Part shown: piece after piece, positions 5,079-29,845 of the stretch
Numbering within the stretch: the stretch's first letter is position 1
Layout: each line of letters starts with the position of its first letter
Source: Candidatus Latescibacterota bacterium
Lineage (GTDB): Bacteria > Latescibacterota > UBA2968 > UBA8231
DNA: 64,000 bases
Direction: 5' to 3'
Assembly: GCA_965203355.1 (NCBI GenBank)
Contig: OZ241889.1
Coordinates: forward strand, 2,496,001-2,560,000
Made by a program: the position numbers and the translations under genes
Notes under the pieces: model-generated
What the model was told of the DNA's origin: nothing
The model's database searches: none
Seen by the model: only the letters and a program-made list of their open reading frames with translations

Positions 5079-8000
5079 ATGAGCGACCTACCCTTTAAGG
5101 ACATAATCAGCAAGCATTACACGGTCTTTGATGGAATGGGCGGGATGTACGTGGAAGACCTCTACCAAGACCACCGAGGGTTTCTTTGGGTCGCCACAGC
5201 CGACGGGGGTGTCAGCCGGTTCGACAGTGTGAATTTTGATGCGTTTGGCCCCAAGGATGGGTTGCCCGATCTGACGGTCATGGCCATTGCCGAAGACGCT
5301 GATGAGCGGCTTTTGTTCGGCACGTTTGGCAGCGGGATTGCGGCGTACGACGGGCGCGGCTTTCAGGTGTACACCACCGAACACGGCTTGCCTTCCAACG
5401 AGATCGTGGGCCTGCAAGCCCAGCCGGATGATTCGGTGTTGGTGCTGACCGGCGCGGGGGTGGCGTGGTTTGAACGGGGCCGCTGCATACGGAGCATAAC
5501 CGAGGTGGGCGGCCAACCATTGGGGCGCGTGTACGATATGGCCACGGACGCGACCGGCACTACTTGGCTGGCGACTTGGACTCGCGGCGTCGTCAGCTTG
5601 GATGGGCGGCGCATGGACACCGGCGACAAAGCCCAATGGCCGTGGAAATTCGCGCAAGACGCCGCTGGCCATCTGTGGATTGCCTTTCACTATGCCGGGC
5701 GGGACGCCTTCATTGGCCGCTACGATGCGCGGAGCGAGCAGTTCGCCTTCGTGGAGGTGGGCGAGCGGGCCGAGCGGACTGTGCAGCAGGGGACGCGGCA
5801 TGTGCGGGCGGACGATAGGGGTTGGATATGGATGACGCGCCGGGGCGTCCTCTGCTACGACGGGCAGGTATGGCACCGTTTTTCCACGGCTTTACCAGAC
5901 CTTGACTTTTCCAGTACGCGCCTGGCATACGAGGATCGCGAGGGCAATATTTGGATCGGGCTTTGGGGGGGTGGGCTGATATTTTGCGACCCGGCCAGCC
6001 TCCGCTACTACACCGAAGCCGACGGCCTGCCCGACAACGAGGTTCGCCACTTAGGCGAAGATGCTAAGGGGCGGCTGTGGATCGGTACGATGGACGGTAT
6101 GGCCTGCATGGAAAACGGCCAAATCCGTCCGCTTGATCAGGCTGAAACCGTGTCGGCGCTGATGGTGGACAAAAAGGGGCGGGTCTGGAGCGGCGGAGAC
6201 GCCGGGCGGGTGTACCAATGGGAAGGCCAGACGCCGCACGCGATTGCGGTGGCCGAAAGGGCCCACGCCCAAGCAATCACTGGGCTGTGCGAAGGCGCGC
6301 AAGGGCGTATCTGGGTCGGCACGGCCCGGGGCGGCTTTGGCTGGATAGAGGGCCATCGCTTCACTCCGGTTGGCGCGTGGGACATGGATGAGTGCCATGC
6401 CTTGCTGCAAGACCAAAGCGGAACGTTCTGGATCGGTTGCCGCGCCAGGATACCGGCACTCTATTGGTACGAAAACGGTCAACGCCTCCCGGCGGCGATG
6501 GTCGAAGCGGAGACCATCGCATATGTCAATGTGCTGTGGGAACACCACAACATCGTGTGGGTGGGCACGGCCAAAGGGCTTTTCGCGTACGACGGCTCGT
6601 CCGGGCAGGTGCGCCACTTTACGGTCGATCAATCGGAGCTGTCGGCCAACGGCATCTTGGCGCTGGCAGCGGACCGGCAGGGTCAGGTGTGGATCGGGAC
6701 CAGTGGCGGAGGAGTGCTGCGCTACGATGGCGAGACCTTCCGAAACATCCGCTTAGGACCTTCGGTGCTCGGCAACATCGTCGAGGCCGTTTTGTGCGAC
6801 CGCGATGGTCGGTTGTGGTTTGGGACGCGGGGGGGATTAGTGGCCTACCAGCCGGGCGATGTGCCGCCGGGCTTGGTCATCCGCGAGGTCTTGGCCGGCA
6901 GGCGCATGGTCGCGCCCGAGGCGGTCTCCTGCCCAGAGGACACCCCGGAAATCCGCATTCACTTTCAAGGGATCAGCTTCCGCAGCGGCGCGGCCGAGAT
7001 GCGCTATCGCCATCGCTTGTTGGGCTACGGCCCGGCCGAATCGTGGAGTGCGTTCACCGCTGCCGATACCGCGATGTACCGCGCCTTGCCGGTGGGCGAC
7101 TACCGCTTTGAGGTGCAGACGATAGACCGCGATAATTTGCAGTCCGAGGTGGTTGGCTTGGACCTCCACATCCTCCCGGACCTCCAAACCGAACATCTCC
7201 GCGTCCTTGAAAGGACCCTGCGACCTTCGCCCTGGGTCGTGCCGAGCCGTAGTCCGGCCATGCAGGAGGTGATGCAAGAAGTCGCGCAGGTTGCCGAGAC
7301 CGATATGAATGTGCTGATATTGGGCGAGACCGGCACCGGCAAGGGCATACTGGCGCAGACTATTCACGAAACAAGCAACCGCTCCGGGCAGTCTTTTGTC
7401 CAAGTCAATTGCGGTGCGCTCCCTACCACGCTGATCGAAAGCGAACTGTTCGGCCACGAGAAAGGGTCTTTTACCGGCGCAAACACCCGCCAGCTCGGTC
7501 GCTTTGAACTGGCCAATGGCGGCGCGATCTTTCTCGACGAGATCGGCGATTTATCGCTGGAGTCTCAGCGGGTATTGCTGCACATCTTAGAGGAGAATAC
7601 GCTGACGCGCGTCGGTGGTCAGCAGCCGATCGCGGTGGATGTGCGGGTCATCGCGGCGACCAACCGCGACCTGCGGCAGGCCATTGCGGAGGGTGCATTC
7701 CGCGAAGACCTATTCTACCGCCTGAGCGTCTTCACGATTGAACTGCCGCCGCTGCGACAGCGACAAGAGGACCTATCGGCTTTGGTGACACATTTTGTGA
7801 ATCGGTCTGCCCTAGATCTCAAGCAGCCAGCGCCGCGGCTAGATGCCGAGGCGAGCGCGGCCTTGTATGCGCATGCTTGGCCGGGGAATGTGCGCGCGTT
7901 AGAGCACGTGCTCCAACGCGCTGTCTTGCTGTGCAAGGGCGGTGTGGTGCGGGTGGAGGATTTGGTGCTGTCGTCGGTTGCGCGGCCGGCGGCTGAAGGA

Positions 8001-8201
8001 CCAATCAGGGACGTGGACAAAGCAACGCCGCCGCCCGAAGGGGGGGACGAAAAGCAGCAGATCCTCGCGGCGCTGCAAGCGACCCACTGGCGGGTCTCTG
8101 GGGTGCATGGTGCGGCGGCGTTGTTGGGAATGCACCCGGAGAAACTGCGTTACCGGATGCAGAAATACGGGTTGCGCCGCCCGAAAAAGCCCGGCACCTA
8201 A
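5079..8201 (+). CDS. Sigma54-dependent enhancer-binding protein with N-terminal Reg_prop beta-propeller repeats, a Y_Y_Y domain and a C-terminal Fis-type HTH
   Basis: Repeated DGLP..V..I.ED..G.LWI.T blades and a [22 protein letters not shown] domain. AAA+ motifs: [49 protein letters not shown]-terminal [17 protein letters not shown]. Confidence 0.92.
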
Positions 8202-8221
8202 CGGCCATCGCCGGTTGTGTT

Positions 8222-8280
8222 TTCCACGAAAAACTGTGTTTTTCCACGAAAAATCCGTGTAATTCCACGAAAAAATCGTG
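8222..8280 (+). promoter_or_regulatory. Three direct repeats TTCCACGAAAAA, putative enhancer (UAS)
   Basis: Copies at 8222, 8242 and 8263 (period 20-21 bp). Each contains a CAC(G)-N7/8-(C)GTG pseudo-palindrome. They lie about 120-180 bp upstream of a -24/-12 promoter. Confidence 0.7.
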
Positions 8281-8349
8281 TAGAGCCTTGCATCGCCGGT
8301 GCGTCGGTATCTTTTGCAAAGCTCTGTCCATAATTTTAAGTATCATGTT

Positions 8350-8362
8350 TTTCAAGGTGTTA
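8350..8362 (+). promoter_or_regulatory. IHF-like binding site
   Basis: TTTCAAGGTGTTA has one mismatch to WATCAANNNNTTR. It sits in an AT-rich tract between the UAS repeats and the promoter. Confidence 0.45.
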
Positions 8363-8401
8363 GGTCCATCCTGAAGAATTTTTTTGCATACGGCCTAATT
8401 G

Positions 8402-8418
8402 TTGGCACGGAATATGCT
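8402..8418 (+). promoter_or_regulatory. Sigma54 (-24/-12) promoter
   Basis: TTGGCACGGAATATGCT matches YTGGCACG-N4-TTGCW with one mismatch and correct GG-N10-GC spacing. It is directly downstream of a bEBP gene. Confidence 0.85.
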
Positions 8419-8557
8419 ACTATTCTCGTTGAAGGCGCGGCTGATGCGGCAGAAAGGAGGTGATAGGCACTCATATCGGTCGCTGCTCCACGCGGACTTC
8501 CAGTATTGAAGCGGCCGCCGGTCGCGGACGTATTGGACTTTTCAGGAGGTAAGAACC

Positions 8558-8836
8558 ATGCAGACCTTGCAGGAATTCTTCACGTCGTCGAGCGGTTTGG
8601 CTCCGGCTCGTCAGGGGTTGGGGCTGGGCTGGATCATCAGTGCGCTCACCGGGGTCGCCATACTGCTCGGGGCCAAGGAAGCCGATGCCGCCGAGTGCAG
8701 GTACCGCACTTATCTAGATTGCGGTTGGGACGGTTGGTGTGCTTCAAGGACGAAAGGGAAAGAGCCGATCCGGTGCTGCACATTTACAGAGTACGCTGAC
8801 TGTAGCTTTGATAGAAGTTGCTCCTGCGTAGCATGA
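8558..8836 (+). CDS. Exported cysteine-rich peptide (92 aa; about 48-aa mature part with 8 Cys)
   Basis: Strong RBS AGGAGGT 7 nt before the ATG. Hydrophobic segment WIISALTGVAILLG, then an A-D-A|A signal-peptidase-like site. First gene after the sigma54 promoter. Confidence 0.8.
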   Translation: MQTLQEFFTSSSGLAPARQGLGLGWIISALTGVAILLGAKEADAAECRYRTYLDCGWDGWCASRTKGKEPIRCCTFTEYADCSFDRSCSCVA

Positions 8837-8868
8837 CGGAGATCGCTTCGTAACTAACCCCCTTTCTC

Positions 8869-8952
8869 TACCCAATGGTGCTAGTGGGCTCCCCGTTGAA
8901 TTCAGCCATAGTCGCCGGGTCCTCTCGGTCAACTCATTGGTGCCATTGGGTA
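8869..8952 (+). other. Long RNA stem-loop after the peptide gene (stabiliser or partial terminator)
   Basis: UACCCAAUGGUGCUAGUG (8869-8886) pairs fully with CAUUGGUGCCAUUGGGUA (8935-8952) using four G-U pairs. There is an inner GUUGA/UCAAC stem, and TTTAT follows. Confidence 0.7.
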
Positions 8953-8977
8953 TTTATCGGAGGATAGAGGCCACATC

Positions 8978-11092
8978 ATGTTGGTATTAGCCGTTTGTGT
9001 ATGGGTCGTGCTGTCGGGTCGGGTCGCCGAGGCGATTCGGTGGGATTTCGCCGATGGAACGACGCAAGGGTGGTCGGCCAAAGAAGGTACTATCTGGGGT
9101 GGGCCGCGTGAATTGCACCTGTTTCCGGGCGTGGTCGCAGAGGGTGTGTGGCGGATTGAGACGATGCCCCCCGGCGCCGAGTCTTCCACTCCGAGTGTTG
9201 ATCTCGTTTCTCCGCCGATTGGGTATGATTCGGCCCTGTTCGATCGAGTCTATATCCGCTTCCGCACGGTCCATCCCAGTCCTACGACCGGTGTTTTTTC
9301 GATGACGTGGACCAACGAGCACAACTTCGCTTTGTGGATGTCAGACGACCTTGAAACCAGTTTTGGAATTCTTGCTGAAGACATAACCTATACCACCGAG
9401 TGGCAGGAAGTGGTGTTTGTCTTGGCCGAGCAAGACGATAAGATATGGGAGGGCCTGTTAAAGGATATTCGGCTTTATTTTTATTTTTCGTCCGATTCCG
9501 CTGTGGATCGGGTTGAGTGGCTTGAGATTGACTGGATCGAGTTGACGGGTGTGGAAGAGCAATTACAAGGGGAACTCCCGCCGCCATACGTAGATTACTT
9601 TCGCTTTGCGGCGGGTCTTTTTGCTCCGCCCGTTTTCCATCCAATCGCCTCGGGTATAGGGAACGGCTCTGTCTTTTTAGGCACGCAGGTAGGCGTTGGC
9701 GTATTGACGGACTTGGATGGCGATGGCGATTTAGACCTTTTCGCCCCCTATAATTACCTTCAAAGTGAGTCGGAGTCTGTGCAGCAGCAGAAAAAACTGG
9801 GCTGGCTCATAGCACTCAACGACGGGCAAGGGGGCTTGGAACTAGGGCGCATAGAGGAAGTCGTTACCACCGGGCAGGCGCGTATCGATCCGGCAACCGG
9901 CCGGACGATCGGGACGAATTTAGCGATGGTGGGGGCTGATTTGACGGGCGATGGGCAAGACGAAATCGCGATGTATCAGAATAGTAGTAGTAAGACGGCG
10001 ATAGAGGTTTGGTCCATTGATTCGGAACTCCAAGTTGAGATACTCATGCAGATCGAGGATAGACAGTTCGTGGATGCGGCCGATTGGGATGGCGATGGCC
10101 GCGCTGAATTGTTTGTCGCCGGGGGAGCGAGTAAAATGTTGGAGATATGGGGTTTAGAACAGGGCCTGTGGATCACCGAGAAAGAGGTAGCGGTAGTCCA
10201 AGACCATATCCCCGGCCGAATCGGCGACTTTACTGGTCATGGGGAACTGGAGGTGTTGTGGCTCCCGATTTTAGGGCATGCCCGTACGTGGACTGTGAGT
10301 GCCTTGGACGCGGAGTCTCAGCAAGGCGAGGTGGTTAAGTTCGATGAATATAGGCGGCTGTTAGGCGTGGGCGATTTTGATAGGGATGGACGAGTGGATT
10401 TCCTCACGGAGTTTATACGCGACCAAGTCGAAGGGAGCAAAGGATTGCTCGTGCAGAACGCCGACCCTGCCGAATCGGCGGTGCTGTACGATGAGCGACT
10501 CTTTCGGCTCTCGCCGGTGCTGATGCGGGACCTGAATGCTGATGGGGTCAACGACTGGGTGTTTGTGGGCGGGGATCGGCCTTCGGGCGTTGGGGTCTTC
10601 ATCGAGTGGGGTGGGGGGGTCAAGCCGACCCAAGCGGTGGAGCGGCATCGGTTGGAAGGCCCTGGGACCTATGTGCTTTCTGGGGATATGGATGGCGATG
10701 GCGATCTGGATTTGGTGGTGTTAGATCCGGTTTTGGGTGGGGTGCATGTGCTCAAGAGTTCGCTGGCCGAGCAAGCGACGGCTGTGCAGGCGGCGGCGCT
10801 GGTTCGGCCGGCGCGGTATCGGCTGGGCGACAGTTATCCCAATCCATTTAATCCGGCGGTGGTCATTCCGTTAGATTTGGCGAGGGACGCGCAAGTTGTG
10901 TCGCTGACGGTATATGACGTGCTGGGTCGTCGGGTGCGGCTGGTGTGGGAAGGGTCGCTTGGGGCGGGTCGGCATGGGTTGGTGTGGGATGGCCGCGACG
11001 AGGCTGGTCGTGCGGTGGCGGCGGGGGTGTACATCTATCAGGTCGCAATCGACGGACAAGTAGAAGCAAGCAAGATGACGAAACTGCCGTGA
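8978..11092 (+). CDS. Exported FG-GAP/VCBS-repeat protein with N-terminal beta-sandwich (CBM-like) and C-terminal FlgD-Ig/T9SS-A-like domain
   Basis: Signal peptide ending AEA|IRW. Repeated DLDGDGDLDL / DxxGDG motifs, and YPNPFNP..WDGRDEAG..VAAGVYIY at the C-terminus. Confidence 0.85.
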   Translation: MLVLAVCVWVVLSGRVAEAIRWDFADGTTQGWSAKEGTIWGGPRELHLFPGVVAEGVWRIETMPPGAESSTPSVDLVSPPIGYDSALFDRVYIRFRTVHPSPTTGVFSMTWTNEHNFALWMSDDLETSFGILAEDITYTTEWQEVVFVLAEQDDKIWEGLLKDIRLYFYFSSDSAVDRVEWLEIDWIELTGVEEQLQGELPPPYVDYFRFAAGLFAPPVFHPIASGIGNGSVFLGTQVGVGVLTDLDGDGDLDLFAPYNYLQSESESVQQQKKLGWLIALNDGQGGLELGRIEEVVTTGQARIDPATGRTIGTNLAMVGADLTGDGQDEIAMYQNSSSKTAIEVWSIDSELQVEILMQIEDRQFVDAADWDGDGRAELFVAGGASKMLEIWGLEQGLWITEKEVAVVQDHIPGRIGDFTGHGELEVLWLPILGHARTWTVSALDAESQQGEVVKFDEYRRLLGVGDFDRDGRVDFLTEFIRDQVEGSKGLLVQNADPAESAVLYDERLFRLSPVLMRDLNADGVNDWVFVGGDRPSGVGVFIEWGGGVKPTQAVERHRLEGPGTYVLSGDMDGDGDLDLVVLDPVLGGVHVLKSSLAEQATAVQAAALVRPARYRLGDSYPNPFNPAVVIPLDLARDAQVVSLTVYDVLGRRVRLVWEGSLGAGRHGLVWDGRDEAGRAVAAGVYIYQVAIDGQVEASKMTKLP

Positions 11093-11128
11093 GGATGCGC
11101 TTTTTGACTTGAAGAAGGATAATACGGC

Positions 11129-11650
11129 ATGGGACAGCCTAAGCATCCCTTATACTGGATTTACTCCGGCTTAATTTTGCTATTAATCCCCGTGATCTTC
11201 GTGCTTACGGGCCTTTATGAAAAAAGCCGTCGCCTCCAATGGCCCCTGCCGTCTCTGCCGCCGAAAGAAGTATTGCTGAGCCGACTCGCCGCGCTTGATT
11301 CCACCGCGCGCGATTTCCAGTTAGACGAAGTATATCAGGCTACGCCCGCGCCGCGTTCCGGGGTGCTGTCCGCCTATGGCGTCCTTACTGACGACGAGAT
11401 ATTGGCCTATAGGCTGGTCGTCGTGCGCTACGACATTGCCTGTGCTACCTGCCGCGATTTACTGGCGGGCATCCTCGTTGAGCCGAGCGACGACCGCGTC
11501 GTGGCCGTTTGGCCCTTGAACTCTTGGGAACTGGCCGACGGTCCTTTTGACCCCACGGCATTTTTCACCCAACTAAGCGGAAGGCTCCTCTCTGAACCTT
11601 TGGCCGTAGGCCGAGACATTGATAAGAAGAGGCTGTCGTGTTGCTCTTAG
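11129..11650 (+). CDS. Membrane-anchored CxxC protein resembling an FMN-binding (RnfG/NqrC-like) domain; probably 3'-truncated
   Basis: N-terminal TM helix and a CATC motif. Ends FFTQLSGR..LAVGRDID, exactly where a Dxx[ST]GAT flavinylation motif would be expected. Confidence 0.5.
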   Translation: MGQPKHPLYWIYSGLILLLIPVIFVLTGLYEKSRRLQWPLPSLPPKEVLLSRLAALDSTARDFQLDEVYQATPAPRSGVLSAYGVLTDDEILAYRLVVVRYDIACATCRDLLAGILVEPSDDRVVAVWPLNSWELADGPFDPTAFFTQLSGRLLSEPLAVGRDIDKKRLSCCS

Positions 11651-13821
11651 CCTTTTGCACTGGCTTGCTGCTCTTGCGCGGCCCTGCTGGGGCGATTCGG
11701 TGGGACTTTGACGATGGGACGACGCAAGGCTGGGGCGCGAAGAGGTCAATGAGCTCGGGCGGGGAGCATGCCTTTATTCCGTTGTCTGGGTCTGTGGAAG
11801 TCGGCGTCTGGCGGATTAGTGTCTTCCGCAGAGATGATGCTAGTGGAGCCGCGGCGGAGGTGATTTCTCCTACGCTCAATGTGGATTCGCATCTGTTTGA
11901 CCGGGTGCGGCTTCGCTTTCGCTTGGTGCATGATAGTCCTATCCAAGGCGTCTTATCATTCCGCTGGACCAATCAGCACAATCTCAGGTCCCCGGGTATG
12001 GATCCTCTATGGCCGCCCCCACTTAAGAAACAGTTCGTTCTAAGGGCAAACGGCTTTTGGGGTGCATGGGTCTATACGACCGAATGGCAAGAGTATGAGT
12101 TTTCGTTGATCGACTTCGAGAAAAATCCCTACGGGTACTATCCCTTATGGGAAGGGCTGTTGGATGATATTCGGCTGACATTTGACTTGGAAGATGTGGT
12201 CGATCCACCGGCCGCGCCTCAGGAGCAAGCCTTGGAAATTGATTGGATTGAACTGACCGGCGTGGAAGAAATGTTACAAGGCGAGTTACCGCGTCCGTCG
12301 GTAGCGGCGTTGCCCAATCAAGCGGCTGGCGTGTTTGCGCCGCCGACGTTCTCGCCGGTGGCGCCGGGGTTAGGGTACTTTCGTCTGTTAGGCTACGATC
12401 CGGTGGGTGCTTTGCTCGACTTAGATGCGGATGGCGACTTGGATTTATTCTCGTTTTGGGAGGCTTTAGATCGCGAATGGAAAGGGGGCTGGCTCATGGC
12501 CGGCAACACCGGGTCTGGCGCGTTTGAACTGGCGCGGTCAGAACAGTTGGACCTGTGGGATCGGCGGGTGTGCGTCGGCGATATAACCGGGGATGGTCGG
12601 TCGGAGTTGGTGGTCAGTCTGGGTAGTGCCGAGTGGGCGATCACCGTGTGGTCGGTCGGCGAAGCATTTCAGGTGGCGGCATTGCTGGAGCGGGCGCCGC
12701 GTCGGTTGGTGGATGCGGTCGATTGGGATGGCGATGGGGCTGTGGAAGTGTTTGCCCAAGCGCTGGACGCGCCGTTTTTGGAAGTTTGGGATGTGGTGGA
12801 TGGGCAGTGGGTCTTTACCGAACTGTCGGTGCCGGACTCGGCTTCAGGGTTGGGTTGGGCGCATCAGATCGGCGACTTTACCGGGGATGGTCAGTTGGAG
12901 GTGCTGTGGGGGCCGAAGGAATCGTTTCATTTAGCGGCGTTTGAAGCGGTGAGTTCGTTTCAGGTGGGGCCTTTAGGGTCGGCTGCGGGCGAGGGGCTGC
13001 TCTTTGCGGATGTGGTTCCGTTTCCGCTGCTGGCGGGTCGGTCGGGCGACTTTACTGGCGACGGACAGGTGGATTTGCTGGCGGGCGTGCGCGAGGATGG
13101 GGCTGAGCAACGCAAGGGATTGGCCGTGTGGAGCCACCAGGCCGCTGGCTTGCAGCAAACGGTGCTCTATGGGACGGATTTGTTTTTGCGCTCGTCAGTG
13201 GTGGTTTGCGACTTGGACGGGGATGGGGTGGATGATTGGGTGTTCGTCGGGGGCGATTATGCGTCCGGCTTTGGGGTGTTCGTGGAGTGGGGTGGCGGGT
13301 TGCATCCGGGCAAACGGGTGGAGTGGTATCGGTTGGCTGGGTTGGGTCGTGCGCGGTTGGCGGCTGGGGCTTCCAGCGGGTTGGAAGGCAACGGGGTGTT
13401 GGTGTTGCCGGGGGATGTGGATGGCGATGGCGATTTGGACTTAGTGGTGTTGGATCGCGCGTTGGGGGGTGTGCAGGTGCTCAAGAGTGCGGTGGCCGAG
13501 CAAGCGACGGCTGTGCAGGCTTTGCCGCTGGTTCGGCCGGTGCGGCATCGGCTGGGTGCTAGTTATCCCAATCCGTTCAATCCGGCGGTGGTCATTCCGT
13601 TAGACTTAGCGAGGGACGCACTGGCCGTGTCGTTGACGGTATATGACGTGTTGGGTCGTCGGGTGCGGCGGGTGTGGGCTGGGTCGCTTGGGGCGGGTCG
13701 GCATGAGTTGGTGTGGGATGGCCGCGACGCGGCCGGTCGCACGGTGGCGGCGGGGGTGTATATCTATCAGGTCGCAATTGATGGGCAAGTACAAGCAAGC
13801 AAGATGACGAAGCTGCCGTGA
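11638..13821 (+). CDS. Paralogous exported FG-GAP/VCBS-repeat protein with C-terminal FlgD-Ig/T9SS-A-like domain
   Basis: Same architecture as 8978-11092 (AIRWDFxDGTTQGWxAK, YTTEWQE, LEIDWIELTGVEE). The 3' ~400 nt are visibly near-identical to that gene. Confidence 0.85.
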   Translation: MLLLAFCTGLLLLRGPAGAIRWDFDDGTTQGWGAKRSMSSGGEHAFIPLSGSVEVGVWRISVFRRDDASGAAAEVISPTLNVDSHLFDRVRLRFRLVHDSPIQGVLSFRWTNQHNLRSPGMDPLWPPPLKKQFVLRANGFWGAWVYTTEWQEYEFSLIDFEKNPYGYYPLWEGLLDDIRLTFDLEDVVDPPAAPQEQALEIDWIELTGVEEMLQGELPRPSVAALPNQAAGVFAPPTFSPVAPGLGYFRLLGYDPVGALLDLDADGDLDLFSFWEALDREWKGGWLMAGNTGSGAFELARSEQLDLWDRRVCVGDITGDGRSELVVSLGSAEWAITVWSVGEAFQVAALLERAPRRLVDAVDWDGDGAVEVFAQALDAPFLEVWDVVDGQWVFTELSVPDSASGLGWAHQIGDFTGDGQLEVLWGPKESFHLAAFEAVSSFQVGPLGSAAGEGLLFADVVPFPLLAGRSGDFTGDGQVDLLAGVREDGAEQRKGLAVWSHQAAGLQQTVLYGTDLFLRSSVVVCDLDGDGVDDWVFVGGDYASGFGVFVEWGGGLHPGKRVEWYRLAGLGRARLAAGASSGLEGNGVLVLPGDVDGDGDLDLVVLDRALGGVQVLKSAVAEQATAVQALPLVRPVRHRLGASYPNPFNPAVVIPLDLARDALAVSLTVYDVLGRRVRRVWAGSLGAGRHELVWDGRDAAGRTVAAGVYIYQVAIDGQVQASKMTKLP

Positions 13822-13869
13822 GAGGACAACCTCAGCATCCATGTGGATTGAGAATCGGAGTATATCAGC

Positions 13870-14172
13870 ATGATACGCATTGACACCTTGAATCGCTGCG
13901 GCGACACCTTAACCGTCCAACTCGCAGGGTATATCTATAAGGAGGAGTTCGCCATCCTGTATGATTTCCTAAAATCGCAGGCCGAGGAGGGCGTAACGGA
14001 GGTGTGCATCGTGGCCAACGAAATGCGAAGCCTCAACTCATTGCTCCAGCGCGACGCGGACCGCTTGGCGCAACTGGGTCTGAGGTTGCGCTTTCAACAA
14101 CTGAACGATTCCATAAAGTACATATTAGAATACTGGGGGAAGGAGGCTTGGATAGATGATGAAGATGAATAA
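13870..14172 (+). CDS. STAS-like small protein
   Basis: 100 aa with a beta-alpha pattern like anti-sigma antagonists (LTVQLAGYI..., SIKYILEYWG). Motif is weak. Confidence 0.5.
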   Translation: MIRIDTLNRCGDTLTVQLAGYIYKEEFAILYDFLKSQAEEGVTEVCIVANEMRSLNSLLQRDADRLAQLGLRLRFQQLNDSIKYILEYWGKEAWIDDEDE

Positions 14173-15814
14173 GATGTGTGCTTTAGTCGCGATAATCGTG
14201 CTGTGCGGCCAGTCGGTGTGGGCGGGCGAGTGGGTGCAAGCGGGAACGGATGATTTCGCGGCGGGCACTTTTGCCGGTACGCAGATCGACCACTCGGGGC
14301 AGGTGTCGCTGACCTCCTTTCGCGGGGTGAATTTGGCGTTGGATGCGGTAGCTGCGTCCGGGCCGAACACCTTGAGTGGTCGCCGCAGCGTCACCGATGG
14401 CAACCCCGACACCGAGTGGCGCTTTGACAACGCAGTCGAAGTGTTGGGCAAGTGGATTCGCATTGACTTGGGCGGCGACCGCGGCGTCAGCCAAGTGCGC
14501 CTGCTGCCGGGCAAGACGGTGGTCCAACGGCCGCAGTTTTTCGTCAAAGGCTATCGCCTCGAAGTGGCGCGCGAAGCCACGCCCGACGATTGGGTCCTGG
14601 TGGCGCAACAGGCCGAAAACACCCGCCCAACGGTCGATACGTCGGCGGATTCGACGTGGATCGAGACCAAGGCCAACGGGGAGGTGTTGCCCGTGTTGGG
14701 CCGCTTTGTGCGCCTGCGCCTGACGCGGGAGGACCCGCCCAACTGGGTTTCCATCGGCGAGGTGGAAGTGTTTGGCGAGGGCTTTCGCGCCGAAGGTGCG
14801 TTTGAGTCGGCTGTGTTCGATGCCGGGCAGCCGATCAACCTAGGGCGGGTGTGGTTTGCTGGCGATAGGCCGCCGGGCACGGTTTTGCAGGTGCAGTTCC
14901 GCACCTCGGCCGATGGGGAGACGTGGCCCGAATGGCACCGGGTGCCGGCGTGGAATTTGACCGCAGTCGGCGCGGGCGTGGCCCTGACCGAGCCGGAGCC
15001 AGCGCGGTTTGTGCAATATCGGGCGGTGATGGAAACGCGTGACCCGTTGCGGACGCCGCGGCTGGCGCAGGTGGTGGTGGCCTTTGGCGAGGAGCTCTTT
15101 GCACAGGCGGTGGCCGGCAGCATTGCGCCGCCGCGTCCGGTGCTGGGTGCGGAGACCGAGTTTGTCTATACCTTTGACGTGGAAATCGGCCCCAGTGATT
15201 TAGGGTTTGACCGAGTGCGTATTGGCTTGCCCGGGTCGGTGCGACAAGTGCGGTTTGACGGGGCGGTGCTGCCGGCGGATGGGTATGAGGCCGCGTGGGA
15301 CGATGCGGGCATCCACTTGGTGTTGGGAGCCGAGCACCACGTGCGTCGGTCGGGGCGGCTCGAAGTGGAGTTTGCGGCCGTGTTGCTGCGGCCGACGCTG
15401 GCGGTGCGGGCGGCCGTGGCGTTGGGCGCTAGCGCGGATTGGCAGTACGTGCGGCCGGTGACGGACGCGGCGTGGACGTTGGTCGGCGAAGGGGTGGTCG
15501 CTCGCGCCTTGCCGCGCGCTGGCGTGTTGGTGCGGCCCAATCCCTTTAACGCGGCGACTGGCCCGACCCAAATTCAGATCGACTTGGCCAAGGTGCAGCA
15601 CCCGCAGGCCTTGACGGTGGCCCTATACGACTTGGCGGGCCGGAAGCAACGGTTGCTGTGGGACGGGTCGGCCGCGGCTGGGCGCAAGCGCTTGGCCTGG
15701 GATGGCCGCGACAACAGCGGGCGGCGGGTCGCGCCCGGGCATTATCTGCTGCGCGTTGAAATCGACGCGGACCGAGCGGATGTGTGGACCGGGTTGGTCG
15801 GGTTGGTGTACTGA
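14156..15814 (+). CDS. Exported discoidin/F5-8C-like domain protein with C-terminal FlgD-Ig domain
   Basis: Signal peptide; VTDGNPDTEW..WIRIDLG..VSIGEVEVFG discoidin motifs; PNPFN..WDGRDNSGRRVAPGHY. The start may be a few codons later. Confidence 0.8.
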   Translation: MMKMNKMCALVAIIVLCGQSVWAGEWVQAGTDDFAAGTFAGTQIDHSGQVSLTSFRGVNLALDAVAASGPNTLSGRRSVTDGNPDTEWRFDNAVEVLGKWIRIDLGGDRGVSQVRLLPGKTVVQRPQFFVKGYRLEVAREATPDDWVLVAQQAENTRPTVDTSADSTWIETKANGEVLPVLGRFVRLRLTREDPPNWVSIGEVEVFGEGFRAEGAFESAVFDAGQPINLGRVWFAGDRPPGTVLQVQFRTSADGETWPEWHRVPAWNLTAVGAGVALTEPEPARFVQYRAVMETRDPLRTPRLAQVVVAFGEELFAQAVAGSIAPPRPVLGAETEFVYTFDVEIGPSDLGFDRVRIGLPGSVRQVRFDGAVLPADGYEAAWDDAGIHLVLGAEHHVRRSGRLEVEFAAVLLRPTLAVRAAVALGASADWQYVRPVTDAAWTLVGEGVVARALPRAGVLVRPNPFNAATGPTQIQIDLAKVQHPQALTVALYDLAGRKQRLLWDGSAAAGRKRLAWDGRDNSGRRVAPGHYLLRVEIDADRADVWTGLVGLVY

Positions 15815-15837
15815 CGAAGCCGCTAAGGAGATGCGAG

Positions 15838-18454
15838 ATGCGTTTTTTTACCTGGGTTCTTTTGTCCGCCTTGCTGCTGGCCGGGCGGCCGCTCATGGCC
15901 GACCTGCCCGACGCGACCCCCTCGCGTCACTTCTTGCGCCGCCCGCCCCTGAGTGCTTACGCCAATTACGGCGAGGATCTCTACCGGCCTTATCGCCGCG
16001 AGATCCGCCTAGCCCCGCGCTACGACTTCCTCGGCAACTTTCTCGCCGAGGGCTTCTTAGTCTACGAGTTGGACGAGCAGCGGCCCGGCGGCAGCCGCAT
16101 CCTCAAGGACCGCCTCTATCGCTCGCTCAACAACCTGATTATCGCCCACGATAGCTACGGCCCGTGGCACTGGTCTTTGACCGTGGGCGATGAAGTACGC
16201 ACGGAGTTCACGCCGTTGACCTTGCGACAGGCCGGCTTTAATGGCTTGCGCTGGGATGTGGTCTTTCCGGCCAATAAGATCACCTTGCTGACCACGCGCG
16301 GTTTTGACTCGTCGCTGTTTCCCACGCTCAACAGCTTTTCCGATCCAGTGGCCCAAGGGCGGGGATCGCTCATTGACTTTTTGGAGCGGACCGAGGAAAA
16401 CCCGGTGTACAATATCGCCGGTTACTGGCAGACCCGGATAGGCGATGTGCTGCGCTTTGGCGCGACTTTTGTCAACCAGCATCAGGCCAATACGGCCCGC
16501 GGCAGTGCCGGCGGCTTTTTGCGCGGTGGCCTGCCCTATCCGGCCATGCAGCCGCCGAGCGAAATCACCGTGCGCGTGCGCGACGACTCGCCGCAAAGCG
16601 ACGAGGCCGGGGCCATTGTGTACGACATCGTCCTCGAGCTGGAAGGAGAAGGGCCGGAGGGGGAGGCGACGATCAGCAGCGACCCGGCTGACGACCGCTT
16701 TGCGCCGGGTTTGCAGCCGCAGGTGTTGGGCGGGCGACGCGGCGAGGGCTTCCGGGAAGTGCGCGGCGAGGAGGCGGTGGAGTACCTGTTTGTCGTACCG
16801 GAGGATTTTGCACTGAGTGGGGCGAGAGTGCGGGCGTTAGTGGCCAATGATTACCGCATTGAAGTGGCGCAGCAGCATCCCTTTTTCGACGCGCTGCGCA
16901 ATCAGTTCACGCCGCGCAACACCCCCTTTGAGACGCGCGTGCGAGCGGCTGGAGAGGTGCGAGATTTTTCTAATCGGCGCGCCGTGGAATTCGACTACGG
17001 ATTTTCTACGGGCCAGACGATTTTCGGCTTTGACGCGGAGGCCACGTTTGTCGGCCTGAAGGTGCGCGGCGAATACCAGCGCAATCTGCTCTACCGCCGT
17101 TTCCCGGTGCTGCGCGGCCAGCGCGACCAGCAGCGGGCGGCCGCGTGGTACGTCCACGCGCTCAAGGATCTGGGCCGCTTGGAGGTGGGCGGCGAACTCT
17201 TCCGCATTGGGCCGCGCTACGGCGGCGGGTACGACAGCCGGCGCGGTGGGGTGCGGCTCTACACCGACTTGGGCGGCGAAAGCCGAGATCAGCAGATGCT
17301 ATCGGAGTTTCCCCTAGTGGATGACAACGACGACAACGACCGCTACGCGGACGACAACTTGCGCGATTATCCCAACGGCACCGAGATCGAGTCGGGCGTC
17401 TTTCCCGGGCTGGACGAGGACAACGACAACATCCCGGACGACGACAAAAACGCCAATGGAGTGCCCGATTTTGAAGAGCCGTTTTTGCTGTACTACTCCG
17501 ATCCGCAGGAATTTGTCTATGGCATTGACCTCAACAACAACGGCGTGATTGACGAGCGCGAAAACGACAACAAGCCCGACTACCCCTACGACCGCGACCG
17601 GCGCGGTTTGCACGGCTTTGTCGCCGTGCCGCCGTGGCGCGGGCTGTCGGCCGGGGTGGGCTACTATCGCCAAGAAGAGATCGCCGGGCCGAGCGGTCTC
17701 GCGCTACGGGCGCGTGTCCTATGGCTTTGACGTGCCGCGCTGGGGAAAAGTCCAGCTCGACCACGACAGCAAGCGGGTCGAGGACACGGTGCTGGACTCG
17801 GTCTATGTCTTTCGTGCTGGCGAGAACAACAACCCGGACCAGCCGCCGACGCCCGATGCCTTGCTGATGGCCGACTCGTGGGTCCATACCTCGTTTGTCG
17901 GCACCCGCTTGGCGCGGCTGGACCAATTCCATATCGAAAACAACGCCCAGTGGATACTAAACCGGCAGTTGGCAGCGGATGCCCGCGTCCAGACCTTCAC
18001 GATGGTCAACAATGCCGACTACACATACGAGTTGGCTCGCCTGCGCGTCCAAGCCATGATCAAGCATTTGTACAAGCACGTCACCGCCAGCGATCGGCGG
18101 CGGGCCGTGGAGTCGTGGAATCAGATCGCGCCCATCCTGCGCGTGGATTGGACGCTGACGGAGAACACGTTGGTGCAATTCGGCCAACAGGGGTTGGGGG
18201 TGCCGTTTACGCGCACGTTGTTGCCAGCGCTGGCTTTCCGCTTTATCGACCGAGTGGATCGGGAACGCGCCCTGCGCTCGGCCAGTTCGGTGTTGATGTT
18301 CACGGTGCGCGGCACGTACATCGGCTACACTATGGTCTCCAACACCGGCATTGAACTGCGCCACGAAGAATTTGTCGATCCGGCCGTGGCGCGGACGCGC
18401 AATGGTGGGGTGTCGCGGTTTTTTATCTCGGTCATCGCCGGATACGATCGCTAA
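15838..18454 (+). pseudogene. Large exported or outer-membrane protein with Asp-rich (TSP3-like) Ca-binding repeats, split by a frameshift near 17686
   Basis: RBS AAGGAG and signal peptide MRFFTWVLLSALLLAG. The first frame is protein-like to ..YYRQEEIAG. The +1 frame then continues GRAVSRYGRVSYGFD.. to a beta-strand-like end FFISVIAGYDR, whose stop overlaps the next ATG. Confidence 0.7.
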
Positions 18455-21400: not shown

Positions 21401-21558
21401 TTTCTTATTACCAGCGGGACAATTGGCGCATGGCCGCGCTAGCCTACGAGGAAGCGGTCGCGGCCTTAGAGGGCAGGAAGGAAGAATGGCGCGCCTTGGA
21501 GTTTGCCCGCAGCAATCGAGCGCTGATTGGTCGCATGTACTTGGGGGAGACGCAATAA
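18454..21558 (+). CDS. Large exported tetratricopeptide-repeat protein
   Basis: Many TPR units, e.g. RYTLGWAFFQLKEYEQAVAAFQEY and ARCNIGVSYYQRDNW. Translationally coupled (TAATG). Confidence 0.88.
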   Translation: MAIWLPLMLAGLVVGSQFATNPEDLGKRFARAQKLLATGDFAGAQRIYEGVLAVQDGVLLHASAVRLEVDEQVVGVQAAARYQLANMARKQAQLWREEAALADSAAADSLALRAVASLQTAARRFAALRDEPGFELRETAAYLVVDCLFEAEDYAGAANAGEVLLRLFPHSRYAGRTRYTLGWAFFQLKEYEQAVAAFQEYVQDAPAGLRADRAQLQRGLALKALGRYEDALAVFARLADGYDPAGMGDAEKRAVALAGLREGQSRRLLAAKAWIERGDVLKELERYAEALAAYKKVSRDFPQESQLAEMAWVRQALLAAVAHGVDASLEVYRYAAEQAERPAFRARMQAGLMSLLFDEGRYRESLAAHRLYLSAYAEFAAAAGVSVEEAVFRQAECLRLLGEESAVADSADAWFAESLALYSTVENYLAAEARFWQGTIHQARRDSAAALAQFEQVMAEEAAPELACRALLEIARLRREQSDVLYAQILTQCADEDVRGLAALVLGRRYRQAGRGEEAHRVLESISPTQPQYAYAQIELAQWYVDAGKGDEAIALIARQIAQTPNAELTAQLGLLYQGRGEHEQALLRLREALPQLAGATAAAAQVGLGWSLYKTGQYEAAWAARQTGALVGDQQRTLLQAMSACAQTLKDNGRMERVYRAMVEEEETRVEGLLGLGQWYLDQGQAAQAATQVRPLLAHAGRAWLLLGRALVAQDSLAGARAALEDGLAQVADPGQAAEFHFELGSVALGMRDYEAAARAFSAALELASRRGLQATALFYLGHSRQAQGHRAGARAAFAELIAEYSDQPQASEAAWLIGELYYEDEEYEQALAYYERVVGDWPTSKDAPEALYGAAWCQLELERIEPMRDLFLRLVREYPQHERAHQGLMHVGDYYYNGHQFLKASRLYEQVVSRFPETAEAVQARQLLAHLADAEADSLYTEGMALYDEGEFERAIAVLQEVIERYPNTPSEAAARCNIGVSYYQRDNWRMAALAYEEAVAALEGRKEEWRALEFARSNRALIGRMYLGETQ

Positions 21559-21610
21559 AATGGACCGGCGCATCTTTCTCGTCACATGCCCAGGGGTCGC
21601 TCGGTGGATA

Positions 21611-22372: not shown

Positions 22373-22424
22373 ACGCGATTCGCGCAAAGACGGCGAAGCT
22401 ATCTTGAGAAAAGGACGGGAGCCG

Positions 22425-27484: not shown

Positions 27485-27495
27485 GGAGGCCCATT

Positions 27496-28152: not shown

Positions 28153-28154
28153 CC

Positions 28155-29837: not shown

Positions 29838-29838
29838 G
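29759..29838 (+). repeat. 80-bp direct repeat, copy 1 (3' end of herA including the stop)
   Basis: GGGCTGTATGGACGAG...TTTGGGGAGTAGG matches 31864-31943 with one mismatch (GCC/GCT). Confidence 0.95.
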
Positions 29839-29845
29839 GGCGGCG

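Follow-up and report, generated by a model that had tools for sequence, protein, structure and literature searches.

Among the closest described systems is PEP-CTERM/exosortase, in which many paralogous secreted proteins per genome carry a short conserved sorting signal (PMC1569441). Its likeness to the cassette described here extends to a linked membrane protease gene, control by a sigma-54 enhancer-binding protein, and confinement to environmental lineages. The cassette differs in its N-terminal signal (L-x-E-F-x-T-S-x-S-G ... W), in a linked protease of the A24 GxGD family, in a regulator that has a propeller sensor where the PEP-CTERM one has a receiver domain, and in its cargo, which pairs a small Cys-rich protein with a propeller bearing a type IX secretion tail.

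Class II bacteriocin loci combine a double-glycine leader, a leader protease, a thiol-disulfide accessory protein, and an adjacent cognate partner gene. The conserved leader with a variable disulfide-bonded core, the tandem peptide-partner pairs, and the processing and redox helpers are common to both; however, neither an ABC exporter nor a C39 protease was seen in the cassette, whose leader includes a membrane segment as well as an A-x-A site, whose partner is a 700-aa secreted propeller, and whose cores are also found fused to a surface-sorting tail. Type IV prepilins and their prepilin peptidase resemble the cassette in linking an A24-family protease gene to small proteins whose short polar leader ends in an invariant Gly, with a hydrophobic segment after it, whereas the cassette leader lacks the G-F-T-L-I-E motif, places its Gly 7-8 residues before the hydrophobic segment, and conserves the second (A-x-A) site, with no pilus assembly genes seen.

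Type IX type A cargo (TIGR04183/FlgD_ig) has its tail in common with the two propeller proteins of the locus, FG1 and FG2, and with long forms of the peptide; the cassette stands apart by a second subunit that lacks the tail, is encoded immediately before the cargo, and is predicted to bind it, a feature not found described in the accessible portions of the sources. The best structural neighbours were integrin-alpha-like propellers (CRTAC1) and CBM-plus-propeller enzymes (galactose oxidase, sialidases, and the rhamnogalacturonan lyase YesW/YesX), which like FG1 place a beta-sandwich domain before a Ca-motif FG-GAP propeller, every TM-score being at or below 0.35 and identities 8-16%. Bacteroides hybrid two-component sensors carry Reg_prop/Y_Y_Y domains before an output domain. 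The cassette regulator has the same sensor repeat family before its output domain, but without a signal peptide or membrane segment, and here the cytoplasmic sensor acts straight on an AAA+ sigma-54 activator, neither kinase nor receiver standing between them.

Anatomy and distribution of the cassette

The window, the whole 64,000-nucleotide stretch analysed, holds one partly deleted copy of a multi-copy gene cassette that is real and conserved in a clade of uncultured Latescibacterota, as judged against a comparison set of 43 related loci in which its anatomy and gene pairing recur. As modelled, the cassette is a sigma-54 switch driving a small disulfide-rich secreted protein and a large propeller, its predicted binding partner. 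The features listed in the earlier note (regulator, repeats, IHF-like site, -24/-12 promoter, peptide, hairpin, two FG-GAP genes, and the CxxC gene between them) were all located at the positions it gave (Table 1). The description of the circuit as complete did not survive comparison with relatives, which carry a protease and two thiol-disulfide oxidoreductases missing from the window copy. No description of the cassette was found in the literature, in agreement with the earlier reading of it as a candidate undescribed system, and it is apparently undescribed.

Table 1. Features of the window copy and its flanking block
Feature	Position	Strand	Basis
Cytoplasmic sigma-54 enhancer-binding protein, 1040 aa	5079..8201	+	Pfam, motifs, homologues
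Upstream activating sequence, three phased repeats	8220..8280	+	Spacing, uniqueness, relatives
IHF-like site, degenerate palindrome, T7 run	8350..8385	+	Pattern conservation in relatives
Sigma-54 -24/-12 promoter TGGCACGGAATATGC	8403..8417	+	Sole exact match; conserved position in relatives
Conserved 5' untranslated region with stem-loop (about 8499-8537)	8453..8557	+	Compensatory changes, shuffles
92-aa precursor, 8 Cys, framework type I	8558..8836	+	Homologues, conservation, model
Long hairpin between peptide and propeller genes	8869..8952	+	Folding energy, shuffles
FG1 propeller protein	8978..11092	+	Pfam, TIGR04183, AF2 model
Truncated remnant (173 aa) of membrane-anchored CxxC/FMN_bind-like protein	11129..11650	+	Alignment to full-length form
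FG2, paralogous propeller	11638..13821	+	Identity to FG1
Co-directional tightly packed block, recurrent at array ends	13870..24678	+	Pfam

Related genomes contain tandem arrays of peptide-partner pairs, with 4-20 peptide-family matches per genome. The block that follows the window copy encodes a 100-aa protein, an F5/8-C plus FlgD_ig protein, 648-aa and 301-aa proteins, a TPR protein, a 281-aa protein, a DUF4159 protein, and a HATPase_c protein; its genes, 84-96% identical, also come after the array in a related locus (L007), and the DUF4159 gene stands beside arrays in at least 10 loci.

Regulator and promoter

The regulator joins a Reg_prop propeller sensor to an AAA+ domain and a Fis-type HTH, with Pfam matches to Sigma54_activat (1.2e-69), Reg_prop (6.9e-42), and HTH_8 (3e-7) and the motifs GETGTGK at 749, GSFTGA at 796, and DEIG at 820; TIGR02915 also matches, below its cut-off. 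Y_Y_Y, also named in the earlier note, reached only 21.3 bits, under its cut-off of 26.6. No membrane segment was found and no hydrophobic 19-mer exceeded 1.32, so the regulator is taken to be cytoplasmic. In 12 of 35 related loci a full-length homologue (67-83% identical) stands immediately upstream of a peptide/FG-GAP unit, and a homologue occupies the same place in all four loci of a diverged second version; the expectation that homologous regulators have such genes downstream was thus not refuted. The gene rpoN was found in 5/5 related genomes.

The upstream repeats lie at 8220, 8240, and 8261 (spacing 20 and 21 nt), each being an imperfect CACG-N7-CGTG palindrome, and they are the only exact copies of TTCCACGAAAAA in the 64 kb; related promoters have 3-5 repeats with a period of 21 or 10-11 nt and a lineage-specific repeat sequence. 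The IHF-like TTTCAAGGTGTTA (8350-8362) is followed by a T7 run at 8379-8385. Of 60 pattern matches, 40 have WWTCAA-N4-TTR 52-54 nt ahead of the -24 box, and 45 have a T6+ run some 24 nt ahead of it. At the IHF/T-run region relatives have a CCTTTAGG-N6-7-CCTAAAGG palindrome, of which the window's version is degenerate. No exact TGGCAC-N6-TGC match other than TGGCACGGAATATGC occurs in the window; a search tolerating one mismatch gave 22 matches against 24.2 expected, no commoner than chance, and therefore it is conservation in related loci, not the motif alone, that constitutes evidence. That conservation is extensive: 40 distinct promoters share one rigid layout of phased repeats, an IHF-like site 53 nt ahead of the -24 box, a T-run, and TGGCACG-N4-TTGC, and in 32 of 56 peptide genes the box stands 136-178 nt upstream of the ATG, upholding the proposed -24/-12 promoter ahead of a small Cys-rich ORF. 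From the promoter position, transcription is expected to start near 8429.

The stem-loop in the untranslated leader comprises 12 pairs, seven with compensatory changes, and 93.5% of cells are paired, a value reached by 0/500 shuffles and set against 27-46% in slid controls; no Rfam family matched the region. A ribosome-binding site, AGGAGG, stands at 8544-8549, 8 nt ahead of the peptide ATG. The intergenic hairpin has a folding energy of -55.2 kcal/mol (z -2.3; equalled by 2/200 shuffles), and most related loci have a strong hairpin in this place, with a sequence that varies by lineage.

The peptide and its propeller partner

The precursor is composed of a leader (residues 1-44) ending in A-x-A and a 48-aa core, and has 138 homologues, none of them named. 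In this family the leader is nearly invariant and the core widely variable, with pN/pS of 0.24-0.25 (pS 0.41-0.46) and 0.68-0.84, respectively; by these ratios the leader is under purifying selection and the core evolves about three times faster. F7, S10, S12, G13, and W25 are invariant in all 20 diverse leaders, as is A44 of the A-x-A. The Cys count is even in 35 of 36 cores, 26 of which have eight. The core is modelled as strand-helix-strand-strand (pLDDT about 85), a fold with a loose likeness to defensin-like bacteriocins (laterosporulin, Z 3.5, not significant); the peptide has no relatives in the PDB.

FG1 consists of a signal peptide, a beta-sandwich N-domain, a Ca-motif FG-GAP propeller with five DxDxDG-like motifs, and a type IX secretion C-terminal domain (TIGR04183, 25.9 bits against a cut-off of 23), its AF2 model being only moderately confident (pLDDT 70). 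FG2 is 46% identical to it and has no peptide gene of its own in the window; ahead of FG2-type relatives stands either a peptide gene of a third, shorter type or a broken one. No catalytic family was matched, and the N-domain lies outside any Pfam family. Of 46 short peptide genes, 44 have directly after them, within 700 nt, a gene for an FG-GAP propeller that ends in a type IX tail.

Co-folding of the peptide with FG1 gave 0.79 (runs 0.75, 0.79, and 0.83) against 0.02 for the best of three controls, this being a model confidence from author-built alignments for a single cognate pair, at a mark reached in calibration by 116/157 solved complexes and 2/215 mismatched pairs. The runs share at least 78% of contacts, with a partner pLDDT of at least 76, and the peptide contacts both the N-domain and the propeller through 128-138 contacts. 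Since the peptide has no PDB relative, the pass is not a remembered complex. Peptide class also tracks propeller clade: all 14 propellers whose partner is a type II peptide group together as a single clade (support 100/100), and class labels change five times on the propeller tree against a shuffled mean of 15.2 (0/200 shuffles as low), a co-inheritance equally expected from simple co-duplication of neighbouring genes. The suggestion that the propellers are binding or display partners is thus supported.

Export and maturation

All five long peptide forms have the same leader, 2-3 Cys-rich domains, and a FlgD_ig tail of their own, and only one is followed by a propeller gene; in P0179 a type I core is fused directly to a FlgD_ig tail. 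PorU was above cut-off and SprA present in 5/5 related genomes. The peptide had been called exported; since it carries no signal for crossing the outer membrane by itself, export here probably means being carried out on the propeller. No precedent for such piggyback export through the type IX system was found in the literature, as represented by the accessible parts of the sources. In the distant versions L036, L037, and L043 the maturation genes accompany tandem peptides, but a propeller is missing, and therefore the peptide has a role independent of it.

Fuller cassettes also encode an FMN_bind-like protein, a protease resembling prepilin peptidases, and a pair of thiol-disulfide oxidoreductases. 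This maturation block adjoins arrays in two diverged versions, and in four diverged versions only a few kb separate A24-family protease genes from peptide genes. The protease has both catalytic motifs (TDISHREIPN and GAGDAKL) and occurs in 20 of 23 peptide-positive genomes against 11 of 144 others. In the window, the gene earlier read as CxxC/FMN-like does encode a 173-aa protein, but as a deletion stump of the maturation block: it matches residues 1-165 of the 196-aa full-length form, and the deletion joint fuses it to the FG2 ribosome-binding site with loss of the DGITGATLS motif. Lacking the protease and oxidoreductases, with a degenerate palindrome and a peptide-less FG2, the window copy may be impaired.

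Alternative explanations

The reading we favour, to which we give about an even chance, is a regulated two-subunit surface or secreted module in which the peptide is exported on its propeller partner. A polymorphic toxin system, with bacteriocin-like antimicrobial peptides and the propeller as a surface decoy, immunity protein, or carrier, is unlikely, though it accounts for the invariant leader beside a fast-evolving core, the tandem arrays, the dedicated protease and thioredoxin-fold genes close by, the predicted tight binding to a neighbour-encoded protein, the tandem peptides without a propeller, and the loosely defensin-like fold. Against it, no exporter was found among the scanned genes of the window block, L003, and L032; to our knowledge, a 700-aa secreted propeller is unlike any known immunity protein; tandem Cys-rich domains fused to a surface-sorting tail are more in keeping with a displayed module than with a diffusible toxin; and the very large, two-domain interface resembles that of a structural subunit. 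A peptide acting solely as a periplasmic helper, a trans chaperone or plug held in the propeller groove until export and then left behind or degraded, would fit the binding across N-domain and propeller face, the missing sorting tail, and a hairpin 3' of the peptide gene consistent with peptide excess; hypervariability is nevertheless hard to explain for a mere plug, the long forms show the Cys-rich domain itself to be secretion cargo, and peptides occur where propellers do not, leaving this account improbable.

Ordinary Sec export does not need such strong conservation in a cytoplasm-facing leader, and the invariance of F7, S10, S12, G13, and W25, with A24-family genes nearby, would favour a pilin-like or membrane-anchored subunit, cut after Gly13 by the A24-like protease in the manner of prepilin peptidases and with its hydrophobic segment retained. 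Its Cys-rich head, anchored in the inner membrane or entering a filament, would be the periplasmic holder or receiver of the propeller. We consider this a slim prospect: no N_methyl/prepilin Pfam match was obtained, the +5 residue after Gly13 is Arg and not Glu, the invariant A44 suggests a cut by signal peptidase I, the genes scanned included no pilus ATPase, platform, or secretin, and type IX tails on partner and long forms imply soluble periplasmic intermediates. There is a similarly small chance that the cassette family is real and the window copy no longer a working unit, as might be read from the deletion joint, which in comparison with the syntenic region of the closest genome has cut short the FMN_bind-like gene and taken out the protease and oxidoreductases, and from the peptide-less FG2 and degenerate palindrome. 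A weak further hint is that, among the 120 homologues listed, the window's own peptide alone comes from a contig as long as that of its genome, clusters being shown by their longest contig. Yet the frames of the regulator, peptide, FG1, and FG2 are intact, the promoter core, stem-loop, and motifs are preserved, and the maturation genes could sit elsewhere in the 4.17-Mb genome.

Proposed mechanism

For the favoured two-subunit module, we infer the ligand, cleavage sites, disulfides, co-export, and final function as follows. The propeller domain of the regulator would sense a ligand in the cytoplasm, and the regulator would bind the phased palindromic repeats and, with help from a bend at the IHF-like site, activate sigma-54 polymerase at 8403-8417. 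The transcript would run from the structured leader through the 92-aa precursor and the hairpin to FG1, the hairpin probably favouring peptide over downstream products. The precursor would insert into the inner membrane via its invariant leader and be cut after A-x-A; in complete copies, the invariant S-x-S-G is probably a further site of action, for the dedicated GxGD (prepilin-peptidase-like) protease. The 48-aa core would fold with four disulfides, assisted in complete copies by the two TlpA/ResA-like oxidoreductases and the FMN_bind-like CxxC protein, and would wedge into its cognate FG-GAP protein, between the face of the propeller and the beta-sandwich N-domain. As the type IX tail is only on the propeller, the pair would leave the cell together, and the end product would be a variable binding module, either on the surface or released, that serves adhesion or recognition.

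The Regulator and Its Sigma-54 Promoter

The regulator, the upstream repeats, the IHF-like site, the promoter, the peptide gene, the hairpin and the two FG-GAP proteins listed in the earlier note are all present where it had placed them, and most of their positions are collected in the table below together with those of the adjoining elements. The regulator is a sigma-54 enhancer-binding protein, with the AAA+ interaction domain (Sigma54_activat, 1.2e-69 in Pfam) bearing Walker A and Walker B, and with a C-terminal DNA-binding helix-turn-helix (HTH_8, 3e-7 in Pfam). Of the three domains previously ascribed to it, Reg_prop and Sigma54_activat were recovered, whereas Y_Y_Y stayed under the Pfam cut-off. 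Its motifs read GETGTGK and DEIG, with the GAFTGA-type loop present as a GSFTGA variant, and it contains no membrane segment; it is therefore a cytoplasmic enhancer-binding protein.

Features of the cassette in the window
Feature	Position or length	Strand	Description
Regulator, 1040 aa	5079-8201	+	Reg_prop repeats, Sigma54_activat, AAA lid, Fis-type HTH
Spacer from regulator to peptide gene	356 nt	+	carries repeats, IHF-like site, T7 run and promoter
Three upstream repeats	within the spacer	+	spacing 20 and 21 nt; sole exact copies in the window
IHF-like site	8350-8362	+	followed by a T7 run
Sigma-54 promoter	8403-8417	+	TGGCACGGAATATGC; single exact match in 64 kb
Stem-loop CCAGU...ACUGG	8499-8537	+	two inner helices; aligned with 43 related untranslated regions (alignment A2)
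Peptide gene, 92 aa	8558-8836	+	strong ribosome-binding site; eight cysteines
FG1, 704 aa	8978-11092	+	FG-GAP repeats, FlgD_ig tail
173-aa gene	11129-11650	+	matches residues 1-165 of the 196-aa protein of the maturation block
FG2, 727 aa	11638-13821	+	FG-GAP repeats, FlgD_ig tail

The upstream repeats are putative binding sites for the helix-turn-helix of the regulator. When one mismatch was allowed, the promoter pattern was found 22 times in the window against 24.2 by chance and is thus not enriched, so that the promoter motif by itself proves nothing. A scan of 8000-14500 for sigma-70 promoters and terminators likewise gave no enrichment over shuffled sequence (3 against 2.9 and 7 against 7.5, respectively). 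The gene for sigma-54 itself, rpoN (Sigma54_DBD), is present in five of five related genomes.

A -24/-12 box of the GG-N10-GC kind lies 136-178 nt 5' of the ATG in 32 of 56 peptide ORFs; the other peptide genes have no box, many of them being internal array copies situated directly after the preceding gene. The layout was surveyed over 60 distinct forward-strand pattern matches from all loci. An IHF-like site was located 52-54 nt ahead of the box in 40 of these, a T-run about 24 nt ahead of it in 45, and an 8-mer repeated at least three times farther upstream, mostly at 21-nt spacing, in 31; the matches devoid of these features appear to be chance matches outside promoter regions. Related promoters carry three to five upstream repeats whose sequence varies by lineage, while the element made up of the IHF-like site and a palindrome is almost constant.

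In the promoters of the related loci L002-L042 this near-perfect palindrome, CCTTTAGG-N6-7-CCTAAAGG with T7 after it, occupies the stretch from the IHF-like site to the -24 box. It varies far less than the activator repeats do and is common to both versions of the system, its copy in the window (8355-8385) being degenerate; another conserved DNA-binding factor may bind there. Some regulator genes in the related loci (L027:2371 and L042:382) are themselves preceded by this layout of repeats, IHF-like site and promoter, which suggests activator cascades or autoregulation; a scan of the window revealed no such site ahead of its own regulator.

The Untranslated Region and the Intergenic Hairpin

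The 5' untranslated region of about 130 nt is conserved, and internal peptide genes that lack a promoter are likewise preceded by its last 90 nt. It harbours a stem-loop of 12 pairs in which 93.5% of cells are paired and seven pairs show compensatory changes; none of 500 shuffles scored as high as observed, and slid controls were paired at 27-46%. No Rfam match was obtained for 8150-9050. The upstream GGAGGUGA could pair with CACUUCC just 5' of the stem-loop, and CACUUCC could alternate between pairing with this upstream element and with the true ribosome-binding site. An upstream small ORF starting from the GTG within AAAGGAGGTGA was considered and rejected, as its start falls in its own ribosome-binding-like sequence. 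Following the peptide gene is a long hairpin (-55.2 kcal/mol, z -2.3); the corresponding hairpin between peptide and propeller genes is strong in most related loci, with a lineage-specific sequence.

The Cassette in Related Genomes

A search for relatives, restricted to one genome per species, returned 35 loci, of which 34 are titled as Latescibacterota or Latescibacteria MAGs and one as Gemmatimonadetes. Together with the window, these contain 53 distinct peptide genes, 46 of them short forms, and in 44 of the 46 an FG1/FG2-like gene starts no more than 700 nt after the peptide. The peptide-propeller units stand in tandem arrays (peptide-propeller-peptide-propeller). Conserved peptide and FG-GAP genes downstream of homologous regulators, as the earlier note had anticipated, were encountered in 12 of the 35 loci, where a full-length regulator of 67-83% identity lies just 5' of the first peptide, and in all four loci of a diverged second version of the cassette. 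Of 167 species genomes from the phylum, 23 have a family match at E <= 1e-5, and five genomes hold 4-20 matches each. In the closest genome the syntenic counterpart of the window locus is expanded, with flanking genes 84-96% identical and identities of 83%, 77% and 73% for the regulator, the peptide and FG1, respectively. Among sequencing runs, no RNA run was listed for the window; two runs with small shares (0.14 and 0.12) bear the label sponge metagenome, which carries no weight as to habitat.

Downstream of the cassette, a block of co-directional, overlapping genes (13870-24678) recurs at array ends. Its products are a 100-aa protein that matches no family, an F5/8-C protein ending in the same sorting tail, a 1034-aa TPR protein, a 648-aa protein whose S-layer beta-barrel match is weak, a DUF4159 protein and a HATPase_c protein. 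Elsewhere in the window, NurA and HerA-like (DUF87) genes adjoin an N6/N4 DNA methylase, with a second methylase 5' of the locus (26198-30706 and 1162-2406), and may form a defence or restriction island. An in-frame TGA (58484-58486) breaks the gene for a formate-dehydrogenase-like molybdopterin oxidoreductase at 56846-59551 (reverse strand) into two ORFs; read as selenocysteine, the TGA gives the unbroken ...IDNCSRAUHAPTVAG..., and FdhD is encoded at 51151-52077.

The Cysteine-Rich Peptide Family

A search of 5.8 billion proteins yielded 138 homologues of the peptide, none of them named, and a profile search of 1.84 billion cluster representatives yielded 146 at E <= 0.001, nearly all of 75-130 aa. 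No relatives were found in Pfam, NCBIfam or, by sequence search, the PDB (0 matches); a cluster look-up for 10 diverged family members gave neither names nor taxa, and the ESM Atlas leads, all under 0.9, were hypothetical proteins of about 90 aa (0.86 and 0.82), with Candidatus Poribacteria as their most frequent source.

Among the aligned homologues, residues 1-44 are almost invariant and the cysteine-rich remainder is highly variable. In the leader, synonymous sites have diverged (pS 0.41-0.46) while replacement sites have barely changed (pN/pS 0.24-0.25), so it is selection on the protein that keeps it, not recent copying. The core pN/pS, calculated with the fixed cysteines included, is 0.84 for type I (17 sequences) and 0.68 for type II (19 sequences), these being the two main cysteine frameworks. 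Of the 36 distinct cores, 35 have an even number of cysteines and 26 have eight, which is what an oxidised domain outside the cytoplasm would be expected to show. The core was modelled as strand-helix-strand-strand (pLDDT about 85). Foldseek returned nothing at E <= 0.001 (best E-value 1.0), and in VIA the highest Z over 48,161 chains was 4.1, with laterosporulin, the defensin-like comparison, at Z 3.5; neither search gave a significant fold match.

Six leader residues, F7, S10, S12, G13, W25 and A44, are invariant over all versions and point to two probable processing sites, S-x-S-G for an A24-like protease and A-x-A for signal peptidase I. Tat export would call for a twin arginine, which a few members do possess, but the window leader reads A-R-Q-G and most members have R-Q, so it was rejected; a lipoprotein was set aside likewise, most members having no lipobox ahead of the first cysteine. 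The invariant G13 is followed by L-A-P-A-R and then by a hydrophobic segment, and no N_methyl match, as of a type IV prepilin leader, was obtained. For a ribosomally synthesised and modified peptide (RiPP), enzymes of the radical SAM, lanthionine synthetase, cyclodehydratase or similar families were looked for among the window genes at 5079-24678 and the accessory genes of the related loci L003 and L032; no modifying enzyme was present and the RiPP reading was rejected. The genes scanned in the window block, L003 and L032 included no dedicated exporter of the class II bacteriocin type (ABC or C39 families), in which a domain cleaves the leader.

The Propeller Proteins and Proposed Export through the Type IX System

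FG1 and FG2 are 46% identical and contain FG-GAP_3 repeats at 50.4 and 81.1 bits (cut-off 26.9), with five and four DxDxDG-like motifs. Their FlgD_ig tails scored 40.1 and 44.9 bits against a Pfam cut-off of 27, and the TIGR04183 type IX sorting domain scored 25.9 and 26.1 bits against an NCBIfam cut-off of 23; Por_Secre_tail was under the Pfam cut-off. FG1 was modelled (pLDDT 70, pTM 0.66) with a beta-sandwich N-domain, an all-beta propeller at about 215-595 and a C-terminal Ig-like tail. Its structural neighbours, all at a TM-score of 0.35 or below, include galactose oxidase, sialidases, CRTAC1 and rhamnogalacturonan lyases (sandwich plus propeller), and the PDB sequence search returned FlgD alone, plus CRTAC1 weakly. 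Two more window proteins bear a FlgD_ig or type IX tail (34-891 and, on the reverse strand, 32216-35161), one of the two being a 981-aa Big_1 or macroglobulin-like protein, and related genomes have at least 40 tail matches each.

Co-folding of FG1 20-612 with peptide 45-92 scored 0.75, 0.79 and 0.83 against 0.02 for the best control. In calibration, 116 of 157 solved complexes came up to the mark, as did 2 of 215 mismatched pairs; these counts apply only roughly here because own alignments were used. The runs agreed in at least 78% of contacts, with a partner pLDDT of at least 76. The predicted peptide contacts lie in the N-domain of FG1 (38-44, 68-73, 104-108, 126-135 and 167-171) and in the propeller (231-486), with strand-to-strand pairing at 38-42 and 429-432. 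In a tree of 36 propellers, all 14 that adjoin type II peptides group in a single clade (support 100/100), and the labels change five times against a shuffled mean of 15.2, with none of 200 shuffles as low. Such a match between peptide class and propeller clade would be consistent with cognate pairing, yet co-duplication of neighbouring genes alone could produce it as well.

As regards export, the short peptide carries an inner-membrane signal only, the type IX tail being on the propeller. Five long family members combine the same leader with two or three cysteine-rich domains and their own FlgD_ig tail, over the cut-off in all five, and a propeller gene follows in only one of the five cases; in a further family protein, P0179, a type I core is joined directly to the sorting tail. 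PorU was above the cut-off in five of five related genomes, and SprA (SprA_N) was present in five of five. Taken together, the fused long forms, P0179, the occurrence of PorU and SprA in relatives and the division of signals between peptide and propeller indicate that the cysteine-rich domain is a type IX cargo, reaching the system by tail fusion or, by inference, via a tail-bearing partner.

The Putative Maturation Block and the Trimmed Window Copy

Four genes, here called the maturation block, lie beside the arrays in the related loci L032, L026, L029, L017, L020 and L002/L003. They encode a 385-aa A24-family protease with both catalytic motifs (Peptidase_A24 at 31.7 bits, cut-off 26.5), a membrane-anchored protein of 196 aa with CxxC and DGITGATLS (FMN_bind at 15.7-19.4 bits, under the cut-off of 22) and two ResA/TlpA-like thioredoxin-fold proteins with CDAC and CPYC; a second Peptidase_A24 score beside arrays in relatives was 27.0 bits. 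Of the 23 peptide-positive genomes, 20 had an A24-like match at E <= 1e-10, compared with 11 of the 144 remaining genomes, and at least one of these 11 (genome G094) has peptides missed by the profile. In all four loci examined, the second version runs in the order of regulator, repeats, sigma-54 promoter, protease, FMN_bind-like gene, two oxidoreductases, peptide-propeller units and DUF4159, with identities of 55-58% for the regulator, about 41% for the protease and about 30% for the propellers. More distant versions retain the protease, the redox genes and tandem peptides and have no propeller. A TPR protein, an 825-aa transglutaminase-like protein and a family-2 glycosyltransferase were also observed beside the block in both versions (L003:409-5496 and L042:7606-12360).

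The window copy of the cassette is a trimmed one. At a deletion joint (11621-11640) the FMN_bind-like gene runs from about codon 165 straight into the FG2 ribosome-binding region; what the closest genome has in between, and the window has lost, is the protease, the oxidoreductases, some other genes and several units of peptide and propeller. The resulting 173-aa gene stops before the flavinylation-type motif D-G-x-[ST]-G-A-T, which it does not contain; its ESM Atlas lead was to FMN_bind-like clusters (0.86, sub-0.9). No protease or oxidoreductase gene of the block, an A24-family peptidase included, was found in the 64-kb window. The claim of a complete circuit with a CxxC/FMN-like protein accordingly needs amending, in that the CxxC gene exists but is truncated at the joint and is without its protease and oxidoreductase companions in the window.

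Novelty and Significance

What the earlier note observed is confirmed, and its interpretation is supported. The cassette is real and conserved, its cargo is fast-evolving and its control region is rigid. The opinion that the combination is not a described system has stood, as neither Pfam, NCBIfam nor the PDB provides a name for it and no description was found in the literature searched. That search was of full text, subscription journals and supplements lying outside its range, and paired Latescibacterota with sigma-54, cysteine-rich, FG-GAP, type IX, prepilin peptidase and eukaryotic-like or sponge-symbiont themes, in addition to Reg_prop/Y_Y_Y sigma-54 enhancer-binding proteins and piggyback or hitchhiker type IX cargo complexes. 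A term search of one Latescibacterota genome paper (PMC12993501) gave 0 occurrences each of "FG-GAP", "sigma" and "type IX".

A joint reading, which we hold to be improbable as a whole, is that the leader is a new kind of sorting and signalling tag, from which would follow feedback on the regulator and a recognition code in the cores. The linked GxGD protease would cut the leader at S-x-S-G on the cytoplasmic face, in the manner of signal-peptide peptidases cutting signal remnants, and the conserved 13-residue peptide thus released would be sensed by the cytoplasmic propeller sensor of the sigma-54 activator, so that each round of export is proposed to feed back on transcription. The freed cysteine-rich cores would leave the cell through the type IX system as hitchhikers, each on its cognate propeller, and, once at the surface, would constitute a polymorphic self/non-self or host-recognition code.

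The cassette would contribute a protein family that has no name, its 146 cluster representatives lacking any relative in Pfam, NCBIfam or the PDB, and a conserved leader of a new kind at the N-terminus, to which a GxGD protease is linked. It is also a candidate for a new mode of export, namely two-subunit (hitchhiking) export through the type IX system, for which there is to our knowledge no earlier candidate, and it offers a resource of 40 natural sigma-54 promoters of fixed geometry with lineage-specific activator sites. The arrays of fast-evolving cysteine-rich cores, which the models predict to bind propellers, have the look of a repertoire for recognition or adhesion, and such a repertoire could explain the attachment of members of this uncultured phylum to particles, polymers or hosts.
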